Virus record (IMG/VR): IMGVR_UViG_3300033067_001394
Location: 1 to 31,604 of that record
Source: a virus
Lineage: Duplodnaviria > Caudoviricetes
Strand: one strand, 5' to 3'
DNA length: 31,604 bases
Below the pieces are notes generated by a model. It had not been told where the DNA came from, ran no database searches, and saw nothing but the letters and a program-made list of their open reading frames with translations. Made by a program: the position numbers and the translations under genes. Shown in pieces: positions 22,362 to 30,536 of the stretch (its first letter is position 1; each line of letters opens with the position of its first letter).

Positions 22362-22841
22362 ACTGGTTCTCCTGCTCGTTGCAGTGCGTCCGCTCCGTCG
22401 GCTGGCGACGAGCGGCGTCAGGTTGTGGGTCGCCGGCATCAACGTCAGGGCGACGTTGAGGATCTCGGTGATGTGGCCGTCCTCGTCGGCCATGAACGCG
22501 GGCGAGAAGTAGCGCTGCTCCCTCGCCCGAATCATGCGCGCGGCGGTCTCGGTCCAGGTGACGCCCGTGGCCCACAGGCCATCCGGTCGGACCTGAAGCC
22601 CGGCGATCCATCCGGCGGCGCGCTGAGGTGTCCCATCAGCCTCTTCAAAGACCCCGTGGCCATAGTCCACGGAGAGGTCGTTGCCGTAGCCAACATGCCT
22701 CTCGACGCAGGCCGCGGCGTCCTCCGGGGTCAGGACAAATGTGCCCTTGGTCGTCTCGACCTGCCCCAGCGGGAACAAGCGAAACTCCGTCGGCGGCTCG
22801 GTCCCGGTGGACAGCCGAATCGGTCGTCGTGGGTAGTGCAT
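21624..22841 (-). CDS. Mu-like prohead protease (gp32/I) with C-terminal scaffold region
   Basis: DYGH, AAGWI, GLWA..V.WT, RYFSPAF and VALTLMPA motifs, then a charged helical region. Confidence 0.9.
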   Translation of the reverse strand: MHYPRRPIRLSTGTEPPTEFRLFPLGQVETTKGTFVLTPEDAAACVERHVGYGNDLSVDYGHGVFEEADGTPQRAAGWIAGLQVRPDGLWATGVTWTETAARMIRAREQRYFSPAFMADEDGHITEILNVALTLMPATHNLTPLVASRRSGRTATSRRTSMEDKYVDASALLKLADDIEKMGEGEDKEKADLKALAERCRKLAEGGETLAKLAEDLPPPSEKKEAEKTSDDGKKDEADKAADDEKKEEAKAASRIVAAAREATGEKDASRIVGALKALGESQGAVVKLTARVAELEASDKAAKDQAKKDRVTALVKASATPGPKCNVSPAEVDDLIAQGIKDEEWLKGYLAKKPVIVAASSVATPAGNATEAAAANVITEDQKKIIQASGLSVDDFVKLRAQLPA

Positions 22842-22848
22842 GGCGGTC

Positions 22849-24447
22849 CTAGGTCGGCGGGGTGCCGAAGCCCTCGGCGGCGCTCACGGGAGGCGGCTCG
22901 GCGGCGATGCCCGCGGCGGCGGCCTGGCGCCGTGTCAGCGGGTGAAACGTGGCCCGGCAGTTGAAATGCCTGGGTGGGAAATTCTGCCGCCACCACGCAT
23001 GGTCGGCGGGCAGGATGGTGCCGTTGGCGACCTTGCACCCGCTCGTGGTGCGGCCGTCGACCACGGCGTCAAACTGCCAGTACGGCCGCATCGCCAGCGT
23101 GTCCGGGTCGGTGGCCTCGGCGTGGCGCCCGGCGTTGTATGCACAGTTGCTAATGAGCAATCGTTGTGATACATACCAGCCCCCCTCGGTCTGAAGGTCG
23201 TAGACATGACCCCTGAAAAACCCGTACCCAATCTCAACGATTTGATCCGTCGTTATGAGTCCGGAGCTTCCGTGAAGGAGCTTGCCGATGAAGCCGGGAT
23301 CGGCGCGCCCGCGCTGACGCGCAGGTTCCGAAATGCTGGCGTCAAGATTCGAGGCCGGGCCGAGGCACGTCGACTGAAGGTTGCCCTGCCAGATGAGACG
23401 CAACGCATCATCGTAGAGCGCTACAAGCGAGGCGAGAGCGCCCCTGCACTGGCGAAGCAACTCGGGCTGACCACCTGGCAGGTCTATGGCTTCCTGAAGA
23501 GCATTGGCCAGAGCCGGCGAAGCGCGTCGGATGCCAAGGTTGCCGAGTGGGCGGCCCTGCCAGATCAGGCCAAGGCCGCTCGCGTTGCCACCATGGCTCC
23601 AGCCTGGGGCGCCATTCGAGGCCGGCGTGTTCCGCTGGAGGAGAAGATCAGGGCCGCGAAGACTCGGTACGAGCGGCTGCTGGGACGCGGAGAGGGCGAG
23701 GATGAACTCGCGAACGCAATCAAGGATCTTGGCCTTGACGTTGCGCAGCAGTTCGCCATCGGACCTTACAACGTCGACATAGCCATCCGTTCGAGCCGCA
23801 TCGCCGTGGAGGTCGAGAGGCCCAAGAGTCCGACTCACGGTTCGTCCAGGCTCACTAGCCAGAGAACGAAATACATCCTCGATCAAGGCTGGACGGTCCT
23901 GTTCGTTTTTTTGAACAAGGCCAAGCGCGGGTCCACCGTCGATGCCGCCAGCGCGAGCAAAGACGTTGTCTCCATTGCGGAGATGCTGCGCGGCGACGAA
24001 TCCGTAAGGGGTAAGTACGGGGTGGTTGGGAGTAACCGTGAGGTGTCGCCCGGATTTTGTTCGAAGCTGAAGAACATCCCCCGCATACCTGGCTTTTGAC
24101 GCCGCAACGAATCGCCCCTCAACCGTCTGCCCGGGGACAAGACACTGCACGTTGGTGCGAAAGATGGTCTCCAGCCGGCTGGCCGGGTTGCCCTTGCTGC
24201 CGACCCACTCGGACTGAAGCTTCTCGCCCACCGCGGCCTTGAACGCTTCGAGGTCGGTGCCCTGTTCGAGGGCGCTGTCCAGGGCCGCCTGGACGCTGGC
24301 GATCAGGTCGAGCTGCGCCGTGCCCGCGACCGTGAAGGCCCGTTTCTTGGCCTCGTCGGTCAGCGCGTCGTACTTGTCCTTGGGCATCGCCAGCCGCTTC
24401 CGGTGCCACTCGATGGCGGCTTGGGGTGCGGTGGGCGATGGGGGCAT
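22849..24447 (-). CDS. MuF/gp30-like minor head protein interrupted by an intein
   Basis: RAFTVAG, RLETIFRTNVQ | CAYNAGR, PYWQFDAVVDGRT and WW..NFPP.HFNCR motifs. The spliced product would be 199 aa. Confidence 0.92.
   Translation of the reverse strand: MPPSPTAPQAAIEWHRKRLAMPKDKYDALTDEAKKRAFTVAGTAQLDLIASVQAALDSALEQGTDLEAFKAAVGEKLQSEWVGSKGNPASRLETIFRTNVQCLVPGQTVEGRFVAASKARYAGDVLQLRTKSGRHLTVTPNHPVLTPYGFVAAQHLRNGDNVFARAGGIDGGPALGLVQKNEQDRPALIEDVFRSLASEPGRTVSRTLGPLDLHGDAARTDGYVDVVRSDGELLRNVKAKILDCVREFILALSASQQPLVPSLRGPDLLLQRNTPASNGAPGWSHGGNASGLGLIWQGRPLGNLGIRRASPALANALQEAIDLPGGQPELLRQCRGALASLVALYDDALRLIWQGNLQSTCLGPASNLDASISEPARQRGRADPGFIGKLLHGSSGLITTDQIVEIGYGFFRGHVYDLQTEGGWYVSQRLLISNCAYNAGRHAEATDPDTLAMRPYWQFDAVVDGRTTSGCKVANGTILPADHAWWRQNFPPRHFNCRATFHPLTRRQAAAAGIAAEPPPVSAAEGFGTPPT
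23146..24144 (-). mobile_element. Intein, 333 aa
   Basis: Block A CLVPGQTV (C1 codon 24142-24144), block B LTVTPNHP, block F HVYDLQT, block G LLISN followed by Cys+1. Removing it restores the MuF motif RTNxxxAYNAGR. Confidence 0.93.
23206..24099 (+). CDS. HTH-HTH + DUF559/Vsr-like endonuclease, antisense within the intein
   Basis: ATG with GAAGGT 7 nt upstream. Two repeats RRYESGASVKELADEAGIG / ERYKRGESAPALAKQLGLT, then E..L...G....Q..IGPYNVDIAI...IAVEVE...R...I...GWTVL. Confidence 0.82.
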   Translation: MTPEKPVPNLNDLIRRYESGASVKELADEAGIGAPALTRRFRNAGVKIRGRAEARRLKVALPDETQRIIVERYKRGESAPALAKQLGLTTWQVYGFLKSIGQSRRSASDAKVAEWAALPDQAKAARVATMAPAWGAIRGRRVPLEEKIRAAKTRYERLLGRGEGEDELANAIKDLGLDVAQQFAIGPYNVDIAIRSSRIAVEVERPKSPTHGSSRLTSQRTKYILDQGWTVLFVFLNKAKRGSTVDAASASKDVVSIAEMLRGDESVRGKYGVVGSNREVSPGFCSKLKNIPRIPGF

Positions 24448-24449
24448 GG

Positions 24450-24803
24450 CTAGGGTCGATGGACAAAGGTGACCGACTCGGTAGGCGCAAAGGCGAGCAT
24501 GGTGCGCTTCAGCCCGAAGGACTCGGCCAGCGGCACGAGCCTCACGTCGTCGCTGACCAGCAGCGTCAGCAGCATCTCGCCGCGACCGCCGCCGAGGGCG
24601 CAGGTGATGCCCACCTGTCGGACCTTGGCCAGTGCCTTATCGGTCGCCTTGGTCCACCGCTCGTCGTGGCCCGGACCCGAGCGGTAGTGCAGCATGGCAA
24701 ACAGGCGGTGGCCCTTGGCCGCCTCCTGCTTGGCGATGTAGTCCGCGTGGGGCTGGAGCTTGCCGAGGGCTTCCCGGGCGTCGTTCCTGGTCTGGTCGCT
24801 CAT
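24450..24803 (-). CDS. Hypothetical protein
   Basis: 117 aa filling the gap before MuF. Confidence 0.6.
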   Translation of the reverse strand: MSDQTRNDAREALGKLQPHADYIAKQEAAKGHRLFAMLHYRSGPGHDERWTKATDKALAKVRQVGITCALGGGRGEMLLTLLVSDDVRLVPLAESFGLKRTMLAFAPTESVTFVHRP

Positions 24804-25104: not shown

Positions 25105-27079
25105 CGTGGTTCTCCAGAGCGCGCACGGCGTTGCGGCCGGCGAGCTGCGACAGCACCAGGGCGTGCTCGGTCACCTGGGCCAGCTCGGTCGGGTTCAGGT
25201 CGGTGGCCGCCTTGCTCAGCGCGGCGCGGATCTCGTCGTAGGACTTGGCCCCGTCGAGCGACGCCAGGACCGCCTGTACCGTGGGCGCCATCGCCTTGGC
25301 GGCGCGGTCCCGGGCGATGCTGCCCACGTCCTCGACGAAGGCGCCGGCCTCGACCGCGGGGGCCGGGGCGCGGACGGCCAGCGCGTGGACGTGGCGCGAG
25401 GTGGTCTCGGCGGCGTCCATTTGCTTGGTGAGCTTGTCGGCCCACGCGCGGCCGGGGTCGCCGCCCCACAGGGCCCAGGCGATGCGACCGGCCGACGGGT
25501 AGCCGTCCTCACCGGGTGACCAGCCCTCGCCGCTCTTGTCGGCCTCGTGGCGAGCGAAGTAGGACGCCATGCGCCGCGCCGTGTCCGGGCTGACGCTGCG
25601 CCCGTTGGACAGGTCGCGAGCGCGGGCCACGCCGACCTCGGTGCCACCGCGGCCGTATTCGTCGCGCCAGTCGAGCCCGCGCTGGGCCTCCTCGCGCACG
25701 CCGTCCGGGGGGCTGAAGTCAATGTGATCGAAGCGCCCGAGGGCGTGGCGCGAGACCGCGTCGGCCTGCGGGCCCACCGGGGCGGCGTCGTCGGCTGCCG
25801 GCGGTGGCGGGGGTGCCACCGGGGCAGGCGGGGCGCCGGGGGGCGCCACGGCCACGGGCGGCGGCTCCTCGCCGGGCTCGTGCAGGGGAAGGTTGTAGCT
25901 CGCCAGCAGCGCCCGGCGGTCGACCCACGGGGCGACCTGCGCCAGGTTCAGCAGGGCCGTGGACAGCGACACCAGCGTGTCGGCCTTGAGCTTGCCGTCA
26001 TCCGGCGGCTCCACGTCGAAGCGGAGCACCGGGGCAAGGTCCGGGTCGCCGTAGTTGAAGGCGGCCCACGCGCGCAGCACCTGGCGCCGGAACCCGGCCA
26101 CCAGCCCGCGCTCGTCGGCTTCGAGGTAGTCCTGCCGCACCTGCCCGTGGACCTTGGCCGCGGCGAACGAGCCGCCGCTGACCTCGGTGGTGAGGTTCTG
26201 ACCGAGCAGGGCGAGGGTGATGCGCTTGTCGGCGTCCTCGGTGGCGTTGCGAAAGGTCTCCCACCCGGTCGCCGTGGCCTCGACCAACTCGATGTCGTAC
26301 TTCTGGCCGTCGATGCCCGTCGGGCACGAGACGACCATGGCCGAGCCGGCGTCACGGATGTCTTGGAAGAATCCGATCTTGTCGTCTTCCGTGGTCTGCG
26401 ACGGGATCGTGGCCTTGCGGATCGGCAGGCCATAGATCTCATTGAACCGCATCCAGTCGCGGAATGCGTATTGCCTGCCGAGCCAGGGTATGGCGATGCT
26501 GCGCACGGCGCCCTGAATCCAGGCGCGGTACTCACCCTCGGGGGTCAGCAGCAGCCACTTGCCATCGCCGGGGGTCACCGCCACCGGCCCCTCGCTCGTG
26601 TTGAGCATGTACTGGCGGGTGGCCCAATTGAACCACAGAAACTGCGGGTGCCAGACCTTGAGCGAGAACGACCACGCGGAAGCGTCGCCGGTCCAGAGGA
26701 TCTCGGCCACGGCGAAGCCCATCATCACCTGCCAGCGCAGGAGCTGGATCATCGACTCGGTCAGGTCGGTCTCGGCCCACAGGGTCTCGAGGTCCTTGGC
26801 CGCGGTCTTGGCCTTGCGGCGGTCACCGCGCGGGCTCGGGGTGATCTCGCGCGGCAGGCCCAGCAGGCCCTTGCACCGGGTGTTGAGCGCGGTGGCGACG
26901 CGGTCATCGCGCTGCACCGACTCGCTCAACTGGGCGCTGAGGAGAAACTGCCCGAGGTCGTGGTTGTCCAGCGCCTGCTGGATCGAGACCGTGCCCCACG
27001 AGCCGGTCCAGGCCATGACCGGCATGTCCTTGCGGACCTGCGTGTCAGGCGAGCGGGGCAGCGTGGGCGGGGTGGTCAT
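25091..27079 (-). CDS. Portal protein (Mu gp29/DUF935) with an inserted extra domain
   Basis: GFAVAEILW, DWMRFNEIYGLP and ITLALLGQNLTT..GGSFAAAKVH..VR motifs; follows TerL. Confidence 0.93.
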   Translation of the reverse strand: MTTPPTLPRSPDTQVRKDMPVMAWTGSWGTVSIQQALDNHDLGQFLLSAQLSESVQRDDRVATALNTRCKGLLGLPREITPSPRGDRRKAKTAAKDLETLWAETDLTESMIQLLRWQVMMGFAVAEILWTGDASAWSFSLKVWHPQFLWFNWATRQYMLNTSEGPVAVTPGDGKWLLLTPEGEYRAWIQGAVRSIAIPWLGRQYAFRDWMRFNEIYGLPIRKATIPSQTTEDDKIGFFQDIRDAGSAMVVSCPTGIDGQKYDIELVEATATGWETFRNATEDADKRITLALLGQNLTTEVSGGSFAAAKVHGQVRQDYLEADERGLVAGFRRQVLRAWAAFNYGDPDLAPVLRFDVEPPDDGKLKADTLVSLSTALLNLAQVAPWVDRRALLASYNLPLHEPGEEPPPVAVAPPGAPPAPVAPPPPPAADDAAPVGPQADAVSRHALGRFDHIDFSPPDGVREEAQRGLDWRDEYGRGGTEVGVARARDLSNGRSVSPDTARRMASYFARHEADKSGEGWSPGEDGYPSAGRIAWALWGGDPGRAWADKLTKQMDAAETTSRHVHALAVRAPAPAVEAGAFVEDVGSIARDRAAKAMAPTVQAVLASLDGAKSYDEIRAALSKAATDLNPTELAQVTEHALVLSQLAGRNAVRALENHDEPR

Positions 27080-28512: not shown

Positions 28513-28915
28513 CCGTGAGCTTGGAGACATCGACGGTCTGGATCGGCCCACCGTTGGGCCCGCTGATCTCGGCCCGGCTCACCGTGCCCCACCGTTTCGG
28601 GTACTTGCGCTCCAGCCGCCACGCAGCCGCGCGCCAGTCCTCGGCCGCGGCCTTGCTGACGGCGAGCACGTCGCGCATCTCGGCCTGCGCCGTGGCCTCG
28701 TGGACCGCCTCGACGAACTCGGCGTAGATGGTGCCCGGGTACTTGTTGCCGCGCTTGAGCCAGCGGTACAGGGTCACCTTGTTGATGCCGGCCGCGGCGG
28801 CGGCGGTCTCGACGTAGGCGCCGGCCCGGATGGCGTTGACGATCTTGGCTTGCCGTTCCGGCGTTAGCCGTGTCTTGCGCCCGGGCTTACCCTTGGGCTT
28901 GTCGGCAGGGGGCAT
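28448..28915 (-). CDS. Terminase small subunit-like HTH protein
   Basis: GRKTRLTPE...AAAAAGINKVTLYRW, WRAAAWRLER and EISGPNGGPI motifs; directly upstream of TerL. Confidence 0.8.
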   Translation of the reverse strand: MPPADKPKGKPGRKTRLTPERQAKIVNAIRAGAYVETAAAAAGINKVTLYRWLKRGNKYPGTIYAEFVEAVHEATAQAEMRDVLAVSKAAAEDWRAAAWRLERKYPKRWGTVSRAEISGPNGGPIQTVDVSKLTDEQLAALAAGHSTDAEDPGAG

Positions 28916-29639
28916 CTTCGTCAGTCAGTTGGAGCGCCGGGATCGGAGTCGCACCGTCCCCTCCTGCTTGGGTGGCAGGCGTGCCGCTGTCTGCACATCC
29001 GGCGCGTAGGATCTTTTTCGGGTAGGGCTTGGACAGGGGCGTGATTCGGTCACGCATGTCGCTGTCCAAGGGCATCAGATACGTGTGCTTTCCTGGCATT
29101 TTTCTAGAAGGAAGATCACGCCACTTATGGGCGCCAGAAGGGTCTGACTTGCGTTTGCCTTGACCAAACGCCCCATAAGTAACCTCACGAGAATGTTTCC
29201 ACCGGCCCTCGTGGAGATATTGCGTGCTTTCGCCAGACCTGCCTACATAGGTCCAACTGCCACCCTGGTAAATGCCACCGTGATGACCTTCGCTTGGGTC
29301 AGCGTAACTCACAACAAGGCGAATGCCGGGTGCATTCTTGCGCAAGAAACGGAGCGCGATGGCGACCACTCTGGTTACCGGCGTCTGGTGCTCTCGCAAT
29401 GCAACGCGCACCAGTTCGCAGCACTCTGTTTGAGTCAGGCCATAGGGCGAACCGATATTCTGGTTTGCCCCGCGAGAGAAAAGAACGCAGCCGATGTATT
29501 TGCCATCTTCCCACGCTCCGATCTTGACGAGTGGCGGCATGGGCAGGCGCTTGGAGTAGTGCCAGTTTTCCACGGCGTACTTGGCCGCCTCATGGGTGCA
29601 CCAGTCCACCTTGAGCGTGGGCTTACTTGCGGAACTCAT
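28887..29639 (-). CDS. Mom-like (GNAT-fold) DNA adenine modification protein
   Basis: HYS, ELVRVAL, LVVSYADPSEGHHGGIYQG.SW.Y.G, K..Y and YPK motifs characteristic of the Mom family; start MSSASK at 29639. Confidence 0.85.
   Translation of the reverse strand: MSSASKPTLKVDWCTHEAAKYAVENWHYSKRLPMPPLVKIGAWEDGKYIGCVLFSRGANQNIGSPYGLTQTECCELVRVALREHQTPVTRVVAIALRFLRKNAPGIRLVVSYADPSEGHHGGIYQGGSWTYVGRSGESTQYLHEGRWKHSREVTYGAFGQGKRKSDPSGAHKWRDLPSRKMPGKHTYLMPLDSDMRDRITPLSKPYPKKILRAGCADSGTPATQAGGDGATPIPALQLTDEDAPCRQAQG
28930..29005 (-). tRNA. Non-canonical tRNA-Gly(CCC)-like element, 76 nt, with encoded CCA
   Basis: GCGCCGG AT GTGC AGACAGCG GCAC G CCTGC CACCCAA GCAGG AGGG GACGG TGCGACT CCGATC CCGGCGC T CCA. 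Perfect 7-bp acceptor, 4-bp D and 5-bp anticodon stems; the T stem has a one-base bulge. Confidence 0.78.
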
Positions 29640-30165
29640 GGCCACAGTTGGGGCAGGAGATGGGCTTGATGGAATCAAGGTCTCCTTGGTCGTCCTCTGT
29701 CCCAGGCAGGAAGTCAGGAATGCTCGCGGCCATCTTGTCCAGTTCGGCTGAGTCCCACCCGGCCAGGGCGGCGTCGTCCAGCCCGTACTCGGACAGGATG
29801 CGCGCGACCTCGCCCGTGTCCCACTCTGCCTTCTCGTTGAGCTTGTTGTCAGCGAGTGCGAGCAGGTGCGCGTCGGCCGGGTCCAGGTCCAGGTAGCGCA
29901 CGGGTACCCGGGTCAGCCCCAGGGACTCAGCAGCCAGGATGCGGGTGTGGCCGGCGATGATCTCCCCGTCTGCCCGCCGGGCCAGGATGGGGGCGCCGAA
30001 GCCAAACCGCTTCATGCTGGCCGCTACCGGGGCGACGGCTGCCTGGTTCTTGCGCGGGTTGCGGTCCCACGGCTTCAGGCTCTTGATCTCCACCCACACC
30101 GCGGCCGGCTCCGGGTGGGCCGTGTCCTGCGGTGCAATCGGTGCGCTTACGTTGCTTTTTGCCAT
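29623..30165 (-). CDS. ParB/Srx N-terminal domain protein
   Basis: LKPWDRNPRKN, SMKRFGFGAPI, IIAGHTR and LADNKLNE motifs; C-terminal CPNCGHEF. Confidence 0.9.
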   Translation of the reverse strand: MAKSNVSAPIAPQDTAHPEPAAVWVEIKSLKPWDRNPRKNQAAVAPVAASMKRFGFGAPILARRADGEIIAGHTRILAAESLGLTRVPVRYLDLDPADAHLLALADNKLNEKAEWDTGEVARILSEYGLDDAALAGWDSAELDKMAASIPDFLPGTEDDQGDLDSIKPISCPNCGHEFRK

Positions 30166-30284
30166 GGATGACCACGGCGGCGGATCGCGCGTACACGTCC
30201 CGCCACCCTTCCTGCGGTGGCATGACGGGGGTGTGCGCGCGGCGGCGCCGACCCCCACAGCCCCTAAAGAAGAAAAGCGGACCT

Positions 30285-30313
30285 GTGGCAGTCCGTGGCA
30301 GTCCGTGGCAGTT
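30285..30313. repeat. Tandem 10-bp direct repeat GTGGCAGTCC, about 3 copies
   Basis: gtggcagtcc gtggcagtcc gtggcagtt, intergenic, upstream of the late operon. Confidence 0.85.
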
Positions 30314-30536
30314 ATTCGCCCAGCCGGTTGACCTGCAACGCCAGGACAATCGAGGCCCACCGCTCCGGGTTCTGCGCCTGCACCGTGGCCAGGTAGATCA
30401 CACGGCGCCCCCCTTCCCTGCCGGTCTGGAGCGTCCCCCGGTCGGCCTGCCGGCGTACGGTCCCGATGGGCGTGCCGGTCATGTCGGCGTACTCGCGCAG
30501 GGTGTACCAGGGCTTGATGTGAAACCCCCGGGTCAT
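30312..30536 (-). CDS. Small Xis/MerR-like winged-HTH DNA-binding protein
   Basis: ATGA-coupled start at 30536; YTLREYADMTGTPIGTVRRQADRGTL...GGRRVI. Confidence 0.75.
   Translation of the reverse strand: MTRGFHIKPWYTLREYADMTGTPIGTVRRQADRGTLQTGREGGRRVIYLATVQAQNPERWASIVLALQVNRLGE

Follow-up and report, generated by a model that had tools for sequence, protein, structure and literature searches.

The window considered here, i.e. the whole stretch of 31,604 nucleotides that was analysed, is a virus record of the class Caudoviricetes (IMGVR_UViG_3300033067_001394; 31.6 kb, approximately 59% complete, GC content near 69%). Its gene for a MuF / SPP1-gp7-like head morphogenesis protein is interrupted by an intein, and the opposite strand of the intein holds an open reading frame (ORF) for a putative nuclease that covers intein residues 16–313 of 333, or 89% of the intein. 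The two genes probably form a single homing element read from both strands.

Anatomy of the intein and of the antisense nuclease

From its splicing motifs and from a structural model, the intein is predicted to be a class 1 cis-splicing intein. The residue set of this class (Cys or Ser at position 1, TxxH, block F Asp, terminal Asn and Cys, Ser or Thr at +1) is found as C1, block B T38-P-N-H41, block F GHVYDLQ with D316, terminal S332-N333 and Cys+1. C1, T38, H41 and N333 are invariant across 125 non-redundant full-length relatives. The latter derive from 164 sequences, of which 150 had both intein ends called (14 did not) and 25 near-duplicates were dropped; the searches had yielded 180 protein relatives of the intein, and the viral-contig scans took the best 80 of 509 loci by the intein query and the best 80 of 310 by the nuclease query. 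The penultimate His is usual in inteins, not obligatory; the relatives have Ser (58), His (52) or Lys (11) at this position and the window has Ser332. The model superimposes on HINT folds (1AT0: Z 11.9, root mean square deviation (rmsd) 1.6, 106/145 aligned; Mtu RecA intein, 2IMZ: Z 11.6, 110/144), in agreement with the 333-residue intein with normal splicing blocks of the initial annotation. Its confidence is high at approximately residues 1–65 and 296–333, intermediate pLDDT scores (predicted local distance difference test; 70–79) are found at approximately 83–127, and values below 50 at 128–211 and 243–283. Intein-free alleles align precisely across the RTNVQ/xAYNAGR junction, so that the insert is in frame and absent from homologues at this exact site.

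The antisense ORF is predicted to have a Vsr/I-Bth0305I-like fold. It is complete and in register 0 with the intein, as first described; its ATG is the reverse complement of the intein His313 CAT codon and its stop is reached at intein residue 16, so that the overlap initially noted between its C-terminus and block B exists and is larger than had been stated. Two helix-turn-helix (HTH) units precede a helical linker and an alpha/beta domain in the model (mean pLDDT 74.5, six-sequence alignment). Pfam recognized HTH_58 (2e-7, above the cut-off), a PHROGs search with the antisense protein gave HTH matches only and no nuclease family, and family profile matches were obtained with 3HRL (9e-6) and 3R3P, i.e. 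I-Bth0305I (9e-4). In a second look at Foldseek's top 1000 for the nuclease model, 3HRL matched with Z 10.1 and rmsd 1.9, 3R3P with Z 9.8 and rmsd 3.3 over 96 residues, and Vsr (1CW0) with Z 9.4 and rmsd 5.7 over 133 residues (span of model residues 140/161–295). Together with the 2LVS profile match (table 1), these results support the two HTHs and the DUF559/Vsr-like nuclease of the initial annotation. The residues that mark the predicted nuclease domain are conserved throughout the family (D191 125/125, E202 124/125, R220 123/125, E165 and Q182 121/125 each); D191 aligns with the metal-binding D196 of I-Bth0305I, and E165 is in the first-Glu role.

Table 1. Features of the MuF locus and of the overlapping genes (positions in the window).
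Feature	Position	Strand	Remarks
MuF / SPP1-gp7-like head morphogenesis gene (host)	22849..24447	-	532 aa including the intein; Pfam Phage_Mu_F 2e-12
N-extein	24145..24447	-	101 aa, ending ...LETIFRTNVQ; 93-96% identity to intein-free L285, L287, L288
C-extein	22849..23145	-	starts CAYNAGR; holds second intein site (CxC-type, HFN/CRA), empty in the window
Travelling six bases (Cys-Ala, TGT GCA)	23140..23145	-	replace Ser-Ala AGC GCC of the empty allele; give the +1 nucleophile
Contiguous intein, predicted class 1 type	23146..24144	-	333 aa; predicted HINT fold from ~106 residues (~1-65 and 296-333)
Block B, T38-x-x-H41	24022..24033	-	double-coded with nuclease C-terminal strand Y271-G-V-V274; T38, H41 125/125
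Sense motif D111-L-H113-G114-D115-A116	23797..23814	-	reverse complement of nuclease I199-A200-V201-E202-V203
Block F, H313-V-Y-D-L-Q318	23191..23208	-	reverse complement carries nuclease start codon and SD-like site
Block G, S332-N333	23146..23151	-	Ser, not His, as penultimate residue
Nuclease ORF	23206..24099	+	297 aa; exact codon register (register 0) with the intein
Shine-Dalgarno (SD)-like GAAGGT	23193..23198	+	7 nt ahead of the ATG
Two tandem HTH units	23233..23505	+	~aa 10-100; 2LVS E 2.8e-10 by profile
Predicted Vsr/DUF559/I-Bth0305I-like nuclease domain	23683..23994	+	aa 160-263; E165, Q182, Y188-N189, D191, E202, R220
Nuclease C-terminal tail	23995..24096	+	aa 264-297, over the intein N-terminal splicing region

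The family and selection on its two strands

Both frames stay open for about 900 nt, as first noted, which is no evidence by itself: antisense-stop codons number only 10 in 3745 in eight ordinary genes of the GC-rich window, giving P about 0.45 for an open frame of 297 codons, and the length of the frame was rejected as evidence for a nuclease gene. The family is more informative. All 125 inteins carry one intact register-0 antisense ORF with a nuclease-profile match, against 13.4 open frames expected from their own extein codon use, so that a nuclease fold is matched and stops break the antisense frame in none of these homologues. The frame is open from block F, through the His position in 123 and from three codons in for the other 2, and its stop lies upstream of block B in 125/125; the nuclease gene thus crosses block B family-wide. 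Intein and nuclease are also inseparable at the level of loci: 80/80 loci found by the intein query have a nuclease match on the other strand, 78/78 found by the nuclease query, with two copies of the window set aside, have an intein match on the other strand, with none free-standing, and the 14 dropped loci all have both matches on opposite strands. The invasion of a mini-intein by a free nuclease gene, offered initially as an alternative origin, is not supported as a recent event at this locus, the geometry being fixed across a very divergent family with 0/78 nuclease-query loci free-standing. The relatives occur in 67 GenBank phage records (Gordonia, Salmonella, Pseudomonas, Vibrio, Escherichia and others) and in 8 genome contigs (metagenome-assembled genomes, MAGs) of several phyla.

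Two length classes of intein (approximately 273 and 325 residues) are seen among the 125 relatives, the difference of about 50 residues falling in the HTH region and corresponding to one or two HTH units. Two hosts are apparently not MuF: L042 (...NQIGA/CSIND) and L108 (...DKYGT/CVVAAADH), the junction of the latter presumably resembling a cysteine-protease active-site motif.

The codon position that varies most switches strand along the element. Across the 125 relatives, variation peaks at the third position of the intein codons in blocks A, B, F and G; in residues 106–295, where the nuclease dominates selection, it peaks at the first one, i.e. the third of the nuclease. In 14 close pairs, 40% of sense and 29% of antisense residues differ in the middle region, versus 18% and 29%, and 12% and 33%, at the two splicing ends. 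The same is seen between the window and the same-site relative P0007, in which 81/118 sense changes within the overlap allow the nuclease residue to stay the same (34% expected; P0007–P0012 were compared as proteins only), and 0/5 outside it are nuclease-neutral. The nuclease core is identical at 86/90 positions to P0003 and 63/90 to P0004, the linker at 41/50 and 24/50. GC content at third codon positions (GC3) is 0.47–0.70 inside the intein versus 0.87–0.96 in other genes.

Where both proteins need a column, selection was assessed by conditioning each column on the other strand, with the proviso that columns are phylogenetically non-independent; control columns vary freely among their synonymous options. 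In block B, both strands impose selection at T38 and N40, while codon 36 is selected for an antisense Gly and codon 43 for an antisense Tyr: codon 43 is GTA or ATA (antisense Tyr) in 103/125, versus 12.8% of the Val/Ile codons in the exteins. In block F, His313 is CAT in 89/102, versus 41% in the exteins, and Leu317 is CTC, which spells the SD sequence, in 93/111, versus 24%; of the relatives lacking His313, 21/25 have a start codon no more than 6 codons away. Hence the start codon and the SD codons of the nuclease in block F, recognized in the window from the outset, are selected family-wide, with SD-like sites that mostly contain GGAG or GAGG (90/125). That His313 is present solely to supply the nuclease ATG is a weakened proposal, since the Mja KlbA intein likewise has GHIYDL; the block F His may be ancestral and later co-opted as the nuclease start.

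The central 230 or so residues of the intein, initially read as a shadow translation, fit this description inasmuch as the nuclease dominates selection there, with the exception of I88-E89 and H113-G114-D115(-G116), which are conserved in the intein frame beyond the needs of the nuclease. H113 is found in 110/125 versus 18.7 expected, and among the 54 loci retrieved only with the nuclease query the HGD motif has H in 45, G in 52 and D in 52. Selection on this motif falls opposite the conserved strand of the nuclease (A200-V201-E202), of which it is the reverse complement. Part of the sense insert is thus conserved and modelled with a pLDDT of 70–79, which goes some way towards a conserved sense-frame domain without refuting the two-strand reading. 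Between blocks A and B the intein falls short by approximately 32 residues, and its residues 85–127 (P-x-x-I-E-D-V-F ... D-F-H-G-D-G), encoded by the strand opposite the nuclease catalytic core, may complete the modelled HINT fold out of order; a sequential structural alignment cannot reveal such a permuted segment, and only one intein of conventional spacing, too few for a profile, was present among the fetched sequences. It is a tentative proposal, somewhat against the odds, that the two genes are interlocked, the shortened intein rebuilding its fold with residues 85–127 or so and the nuclease taking its start signals out of block F and its final strand out of block B. Loss of one gene alone would then be impossible, which would explain why no decayed copy is seen in the 125 relatives. 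If so, the homing element would be barred from decaying to a mini-intein as such elements usually do, and overprinting would be a route by which a selfish gene is shielded from decay. Completion of the fold by the HGD segment would also imply a permuted intein core or one of less than 125 residues, 125 being the size given for gp41-1 in the available text of 10.1101/546465.

Insertion site, empty alleles and the proposed homing cycle

Insertion sites lie ahead of a CxC motif in 107 of the 125 relatives and ahead of a Cys in 123 (the Ser+1 of L129 in this count is a boundary error, the true end being ...AHN/CHC). The inteins of the window and of five proteins (P0007, P0008, P0010, P0011 and P0012) are instead inserted after RTNxQ or RTNxM in the central region of MuF. 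In a midpoint-rooted FastTree of 144 sequences, including five of these six (P0010 was left out as close to P0008), the RTNxQ clade is nested among CxC-site inteins with a support of 0.988, with the caveat that rooting was by midpoint only. A single switch of site, away from the C-terminal CxC motif of MuF, is the likely origin of this lineage. A DNA pattern search for same-site inteins in viral contigs returned only two records, both identical to the window.

Empty alleles at 93–96% identity are available (L285, L286 and L287). Over the stretch from −21 to +21 around the site, L285 and L287 are the same, and the window differs from them at −16, +1, +3 and +6; the joint of the empty allele (23139 to 24145) leaves out 1005 nt and has six different letters there. 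Cys+1 is found with 6/6 same-site inteins and in 0/177 empty alleles (0/112 and 0/65, 34 of the 65 having neither Ser nor Thr). Contigs of both the empty and the filled allele are present in X9 and X10, two runs of one study. The intein of an X14 contig has 2 differences from the window among those listed, both at third positions of the nuclease, and at most 7 in 999 nt, while its N-extein has at least 17 in 295 nt (about 6% divergence). A near-identical intein in divergent exteins has been taken as recent homing in the available text of a preprint by Gosselin, Arsenault & Gogarten (bioRxiv 10.1101/2025.01.02.630785), and the X14 pattern and the near-identical empty alleles appear to be signs of recent movement, as judged from the sequences.

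Some further sites were noted. At its C-terminal CxC-type site (window 22959/22960, HFN/CRA), the X14 contig has a second insertion, approximately 978 nt net in length, which is probably another family member within the same MuF gene. Other sites in the MuF region are RxE/T with Thr+1 (P0009 and L076:2501-3427, which group together with a support of 0.998) and NPQY/CDMVFRTN (L371 and P0120); in P0009, which contains two inteins of the family, the site used in the window is empty and has Ser. A CAACG direct repeat flanks the empty insertion site of L285 (around 1797, 18 nt apart) and could suit tandem HTHs.

From the two frames, the folds of the predicted models, strand-specific selection, the empty alleles and the patchy distribution, a two-strand homing element is proposed (probability about 0.85), in which the intein splices from MuF, the antisense nuclease cuts empty MuF alleles and repair copies the element. 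Class 1 splicing by C1, T38/H41, D316, N333 and Cys+1, in the absence of the usual penultimate His, would restore MuF. Translation of the nuclease would start from an antisense transcript at the ATG, with its SD, concealed within block F; the two HTHs of the protein would recognize the target, and E165, D191 and E202 would cleave near RTNVQ/SAY in a co-infecting phage or prophage. Repair would then copy the 999 nt of the intein and 6 nt of the C-extein, so that the element would install its own Cys+1 and alter the target. The two-strand selfish element of the initial annotation is in this respect upheld by the Vsr-like fold, the 125/125 intact frames and the nuclease-dominated selection in mid-intein.

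Several observations weigh against this proposal. With the nuclease model, Foldseek returned nothing at E ≤ 0.001, the top rows being helical mitoribosomal proteins, and the Pfam nuclease matches (MTES_1575, 1.6e-5; DUF559, 1.6e-3) are both below the cut-off. A scan of 22600–24500 found no promoter and no terminator (0.1 and 1.5 expected), and hence no sigma-70-type promoter for the antisense strand. The window SD is of the weaker GAAGG form, and the nuclease departs from the consensus at T90 (R in 108/125) and R278 (G in 102/125). GxxWH, found in 65/116 matched relatives, is mostly missing in the sub-clade of the window, and neither the His nor the final Asp of EDxHD is in register in the window nuclease: the family His lies 7 residues past E202, and His211 of the window nuclease is displaced from it by two residues, within a loop of pLDDT below 50, and none of the five residues before R220 is the Asp present in 11/116 relatives. 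The six Cys+1 cases form one clade, and hence one event, the patchy presence could also stem from ordinary recombination among mosaic phages, and best-hit sampling favours intact, similar copies, decayed ones being under-sampled.

The altered loop after E202, the weaker SD and the two non-consensus residues would be expected if the antisense gene were a former homing nuclease, now dead or decaying, with the intein moving by ordinary recombination among related phages, which the mosaic exteins of X14, L285 and L287 indicate to be frequent. Such decay is improbable given that all family-invariant nuclease residues are retained, that the core is better kept than the linker in the comparisons with P0003 and P0004, that most sense changes relative to P0007 are nuclease-neutral, and that the variant tract is limited to the intein plus 6 nt. 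A little less probable again is that the antisense protein is kept chiefly for the benefit of the phage, as a DNA-binding regulator or as a nuclease cutting the MuF gene of competitors, with homing as a side effect. The strong HTH signal and the long retention without a decayed copy in 125, whereas a homing cycle predicts decay, are in its favour; however, the sampling favoured intact copies, the nuclease is always inside an intein (78/78 nuclease-query loci) and travels with it between sites and host genes, and a nuclease directed at competitors would rely on the same cleavage, which is compatible with homing. That the plus-strand ORF is an antisense shadow of high GC3 codon bias, as the chance of about 0.45 for its open frame would allow, is refuted by residue conservation, strand-specific selection and structural matches, besides the GC3 drop within the intein, the profile matches, the 125/125 open frames and the rare GTA/ATA codons fixed where the antisense strand needs Tyr.

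Relation to known systems and genome setting

The layout, presented initially as if novel, is already in print. In the available text of the 2025 preprint cited above, anti-sense VSR-like homing endonucleases (HENs) matching 1CW0 and 3R3P are described in full inteins, including ones with minor capsid hosts. The actinobacteriophage elements share with the window a contiguous intein, an opposite-strand nuclease, a minor capsid host and a helical linker; the window intein differs in lying at RTNxQ/C rather than at the CxC motif of 107/125 relatives and of Gordonia phage Fosterous, with a co-imported Cys+1 and without GxxWH. The anti-sense inteins are further characterized by an in-frame insert lacking recognizable structure; the insert of the window is modelled with pLDDT below 50 over 128–211 and 243–283 and of 70–79 over about 83–127, the part that bears the sense-selected HGD. 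In the same text anti-sense elements are considered seemingly rare, with second ORFs typically outside the splicing domain, whereas in the present family the ORF crosses block B in 125/125 and relatives are found in 67 GenBank phage records plus MAGs of several phyla. Its main text contains no ‘start codon’ or ‘block B’ passage and no selection or mechanism data. MuF genes of Gordonia phages (Fosterous, Affeca, Angelicage, Vivi2; 8 records) match the nuclease at 27%, with E down to 8e-15; Fosterous has the same His-CAT start and a nuclease running through block B as in the window, but at a CxC site.

I-Bth0305I likewise combines an N-terminal DNA-binding part with a C-terminal Vsr-like nuclease, according to the available text of Taylor et al. 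2011 (PMC3239194), but stands alone in a group I intron of recA, while the DNA-binding units of the window nuclease are HTHs and the gene lies in an intein. From the same source, H213, the general base, and D222 of I-Bth0305I are needed for dimerisation or cleavage; neither has an in-register counterpart in the window nuclease, which is likely similar in fold and role but, because the in-register His and last Asp are missing, not classed here with the EDxHD group. In the split inteins of Dassa et al. 2009, as cited in the 2025 preprint, a free-standing Vsr-like HEN between the halves is a separate gene tied to an intein of phage genes; in contrast, the window intein is contiguous and its nuclease wholly overlapped on the other strand. 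The ShiLan insertion in a phage methylase likewise conceals an out-of-frame homing nuclease without closing the host frame, but it is of the HNH family and, in the available text of PMC11855218, involves no recognized intein.

A literature search with subscription journals outside its coverage returned no report of this nuclease–intein family besides the 2025 preprint, and no paper on a co-imported +1 residue among the papers listed. What appears new is the RTNVQ/C site with its co-imported Cys, the filled/empty pair, the selection seen codon by codon on each strand (in blocks B and F and in the HGD/AVE columns), and the HGD motif in an intein whose HINT core is shortened. The filled allele and the empty alleles at 93–96% identity are a ready test pair for the first cleavage or homing assay of the family. 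A site switch within one gene by an element that brings its own +1 nucleophile would be a way into sites that lack one, and the family offers a sizeable natural example of two predicted folded proteins that overlap almost completely in antisense.

The MuF gene belongs to a minus-strand set comprising terminase, Mu-type portal, MuF, Mu I protease, gpT head and baseplate genes; it is located between those for the portal (Pfam Portal_Mu, 2e-59) and the Mu I protease (Mu-like_Pro, 8e-47). Directly upstream, at 24450–24803 (minus strand), an ORF of 117 residues without Pfam or PHROG match (Atlas best 0.79) corresponds to a 391-nt presence/absence insert, absent from L285, L287, L288 and the X4 and X14 contigs and present in an intein-free X10 contig. 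In the portal gene, a Pro/Ala-rich stretch (25757–25903) is unalignable with the close relatives L285 and L288, its flanks being 91–92% identical. Upstream of the terminase module, at 28887–30360 (minus strand), a Mom-family DNA modification gene (Pfam 3e-43) adjoins a ParB-like gene, and base modification by its product could influence nuclease targeting.

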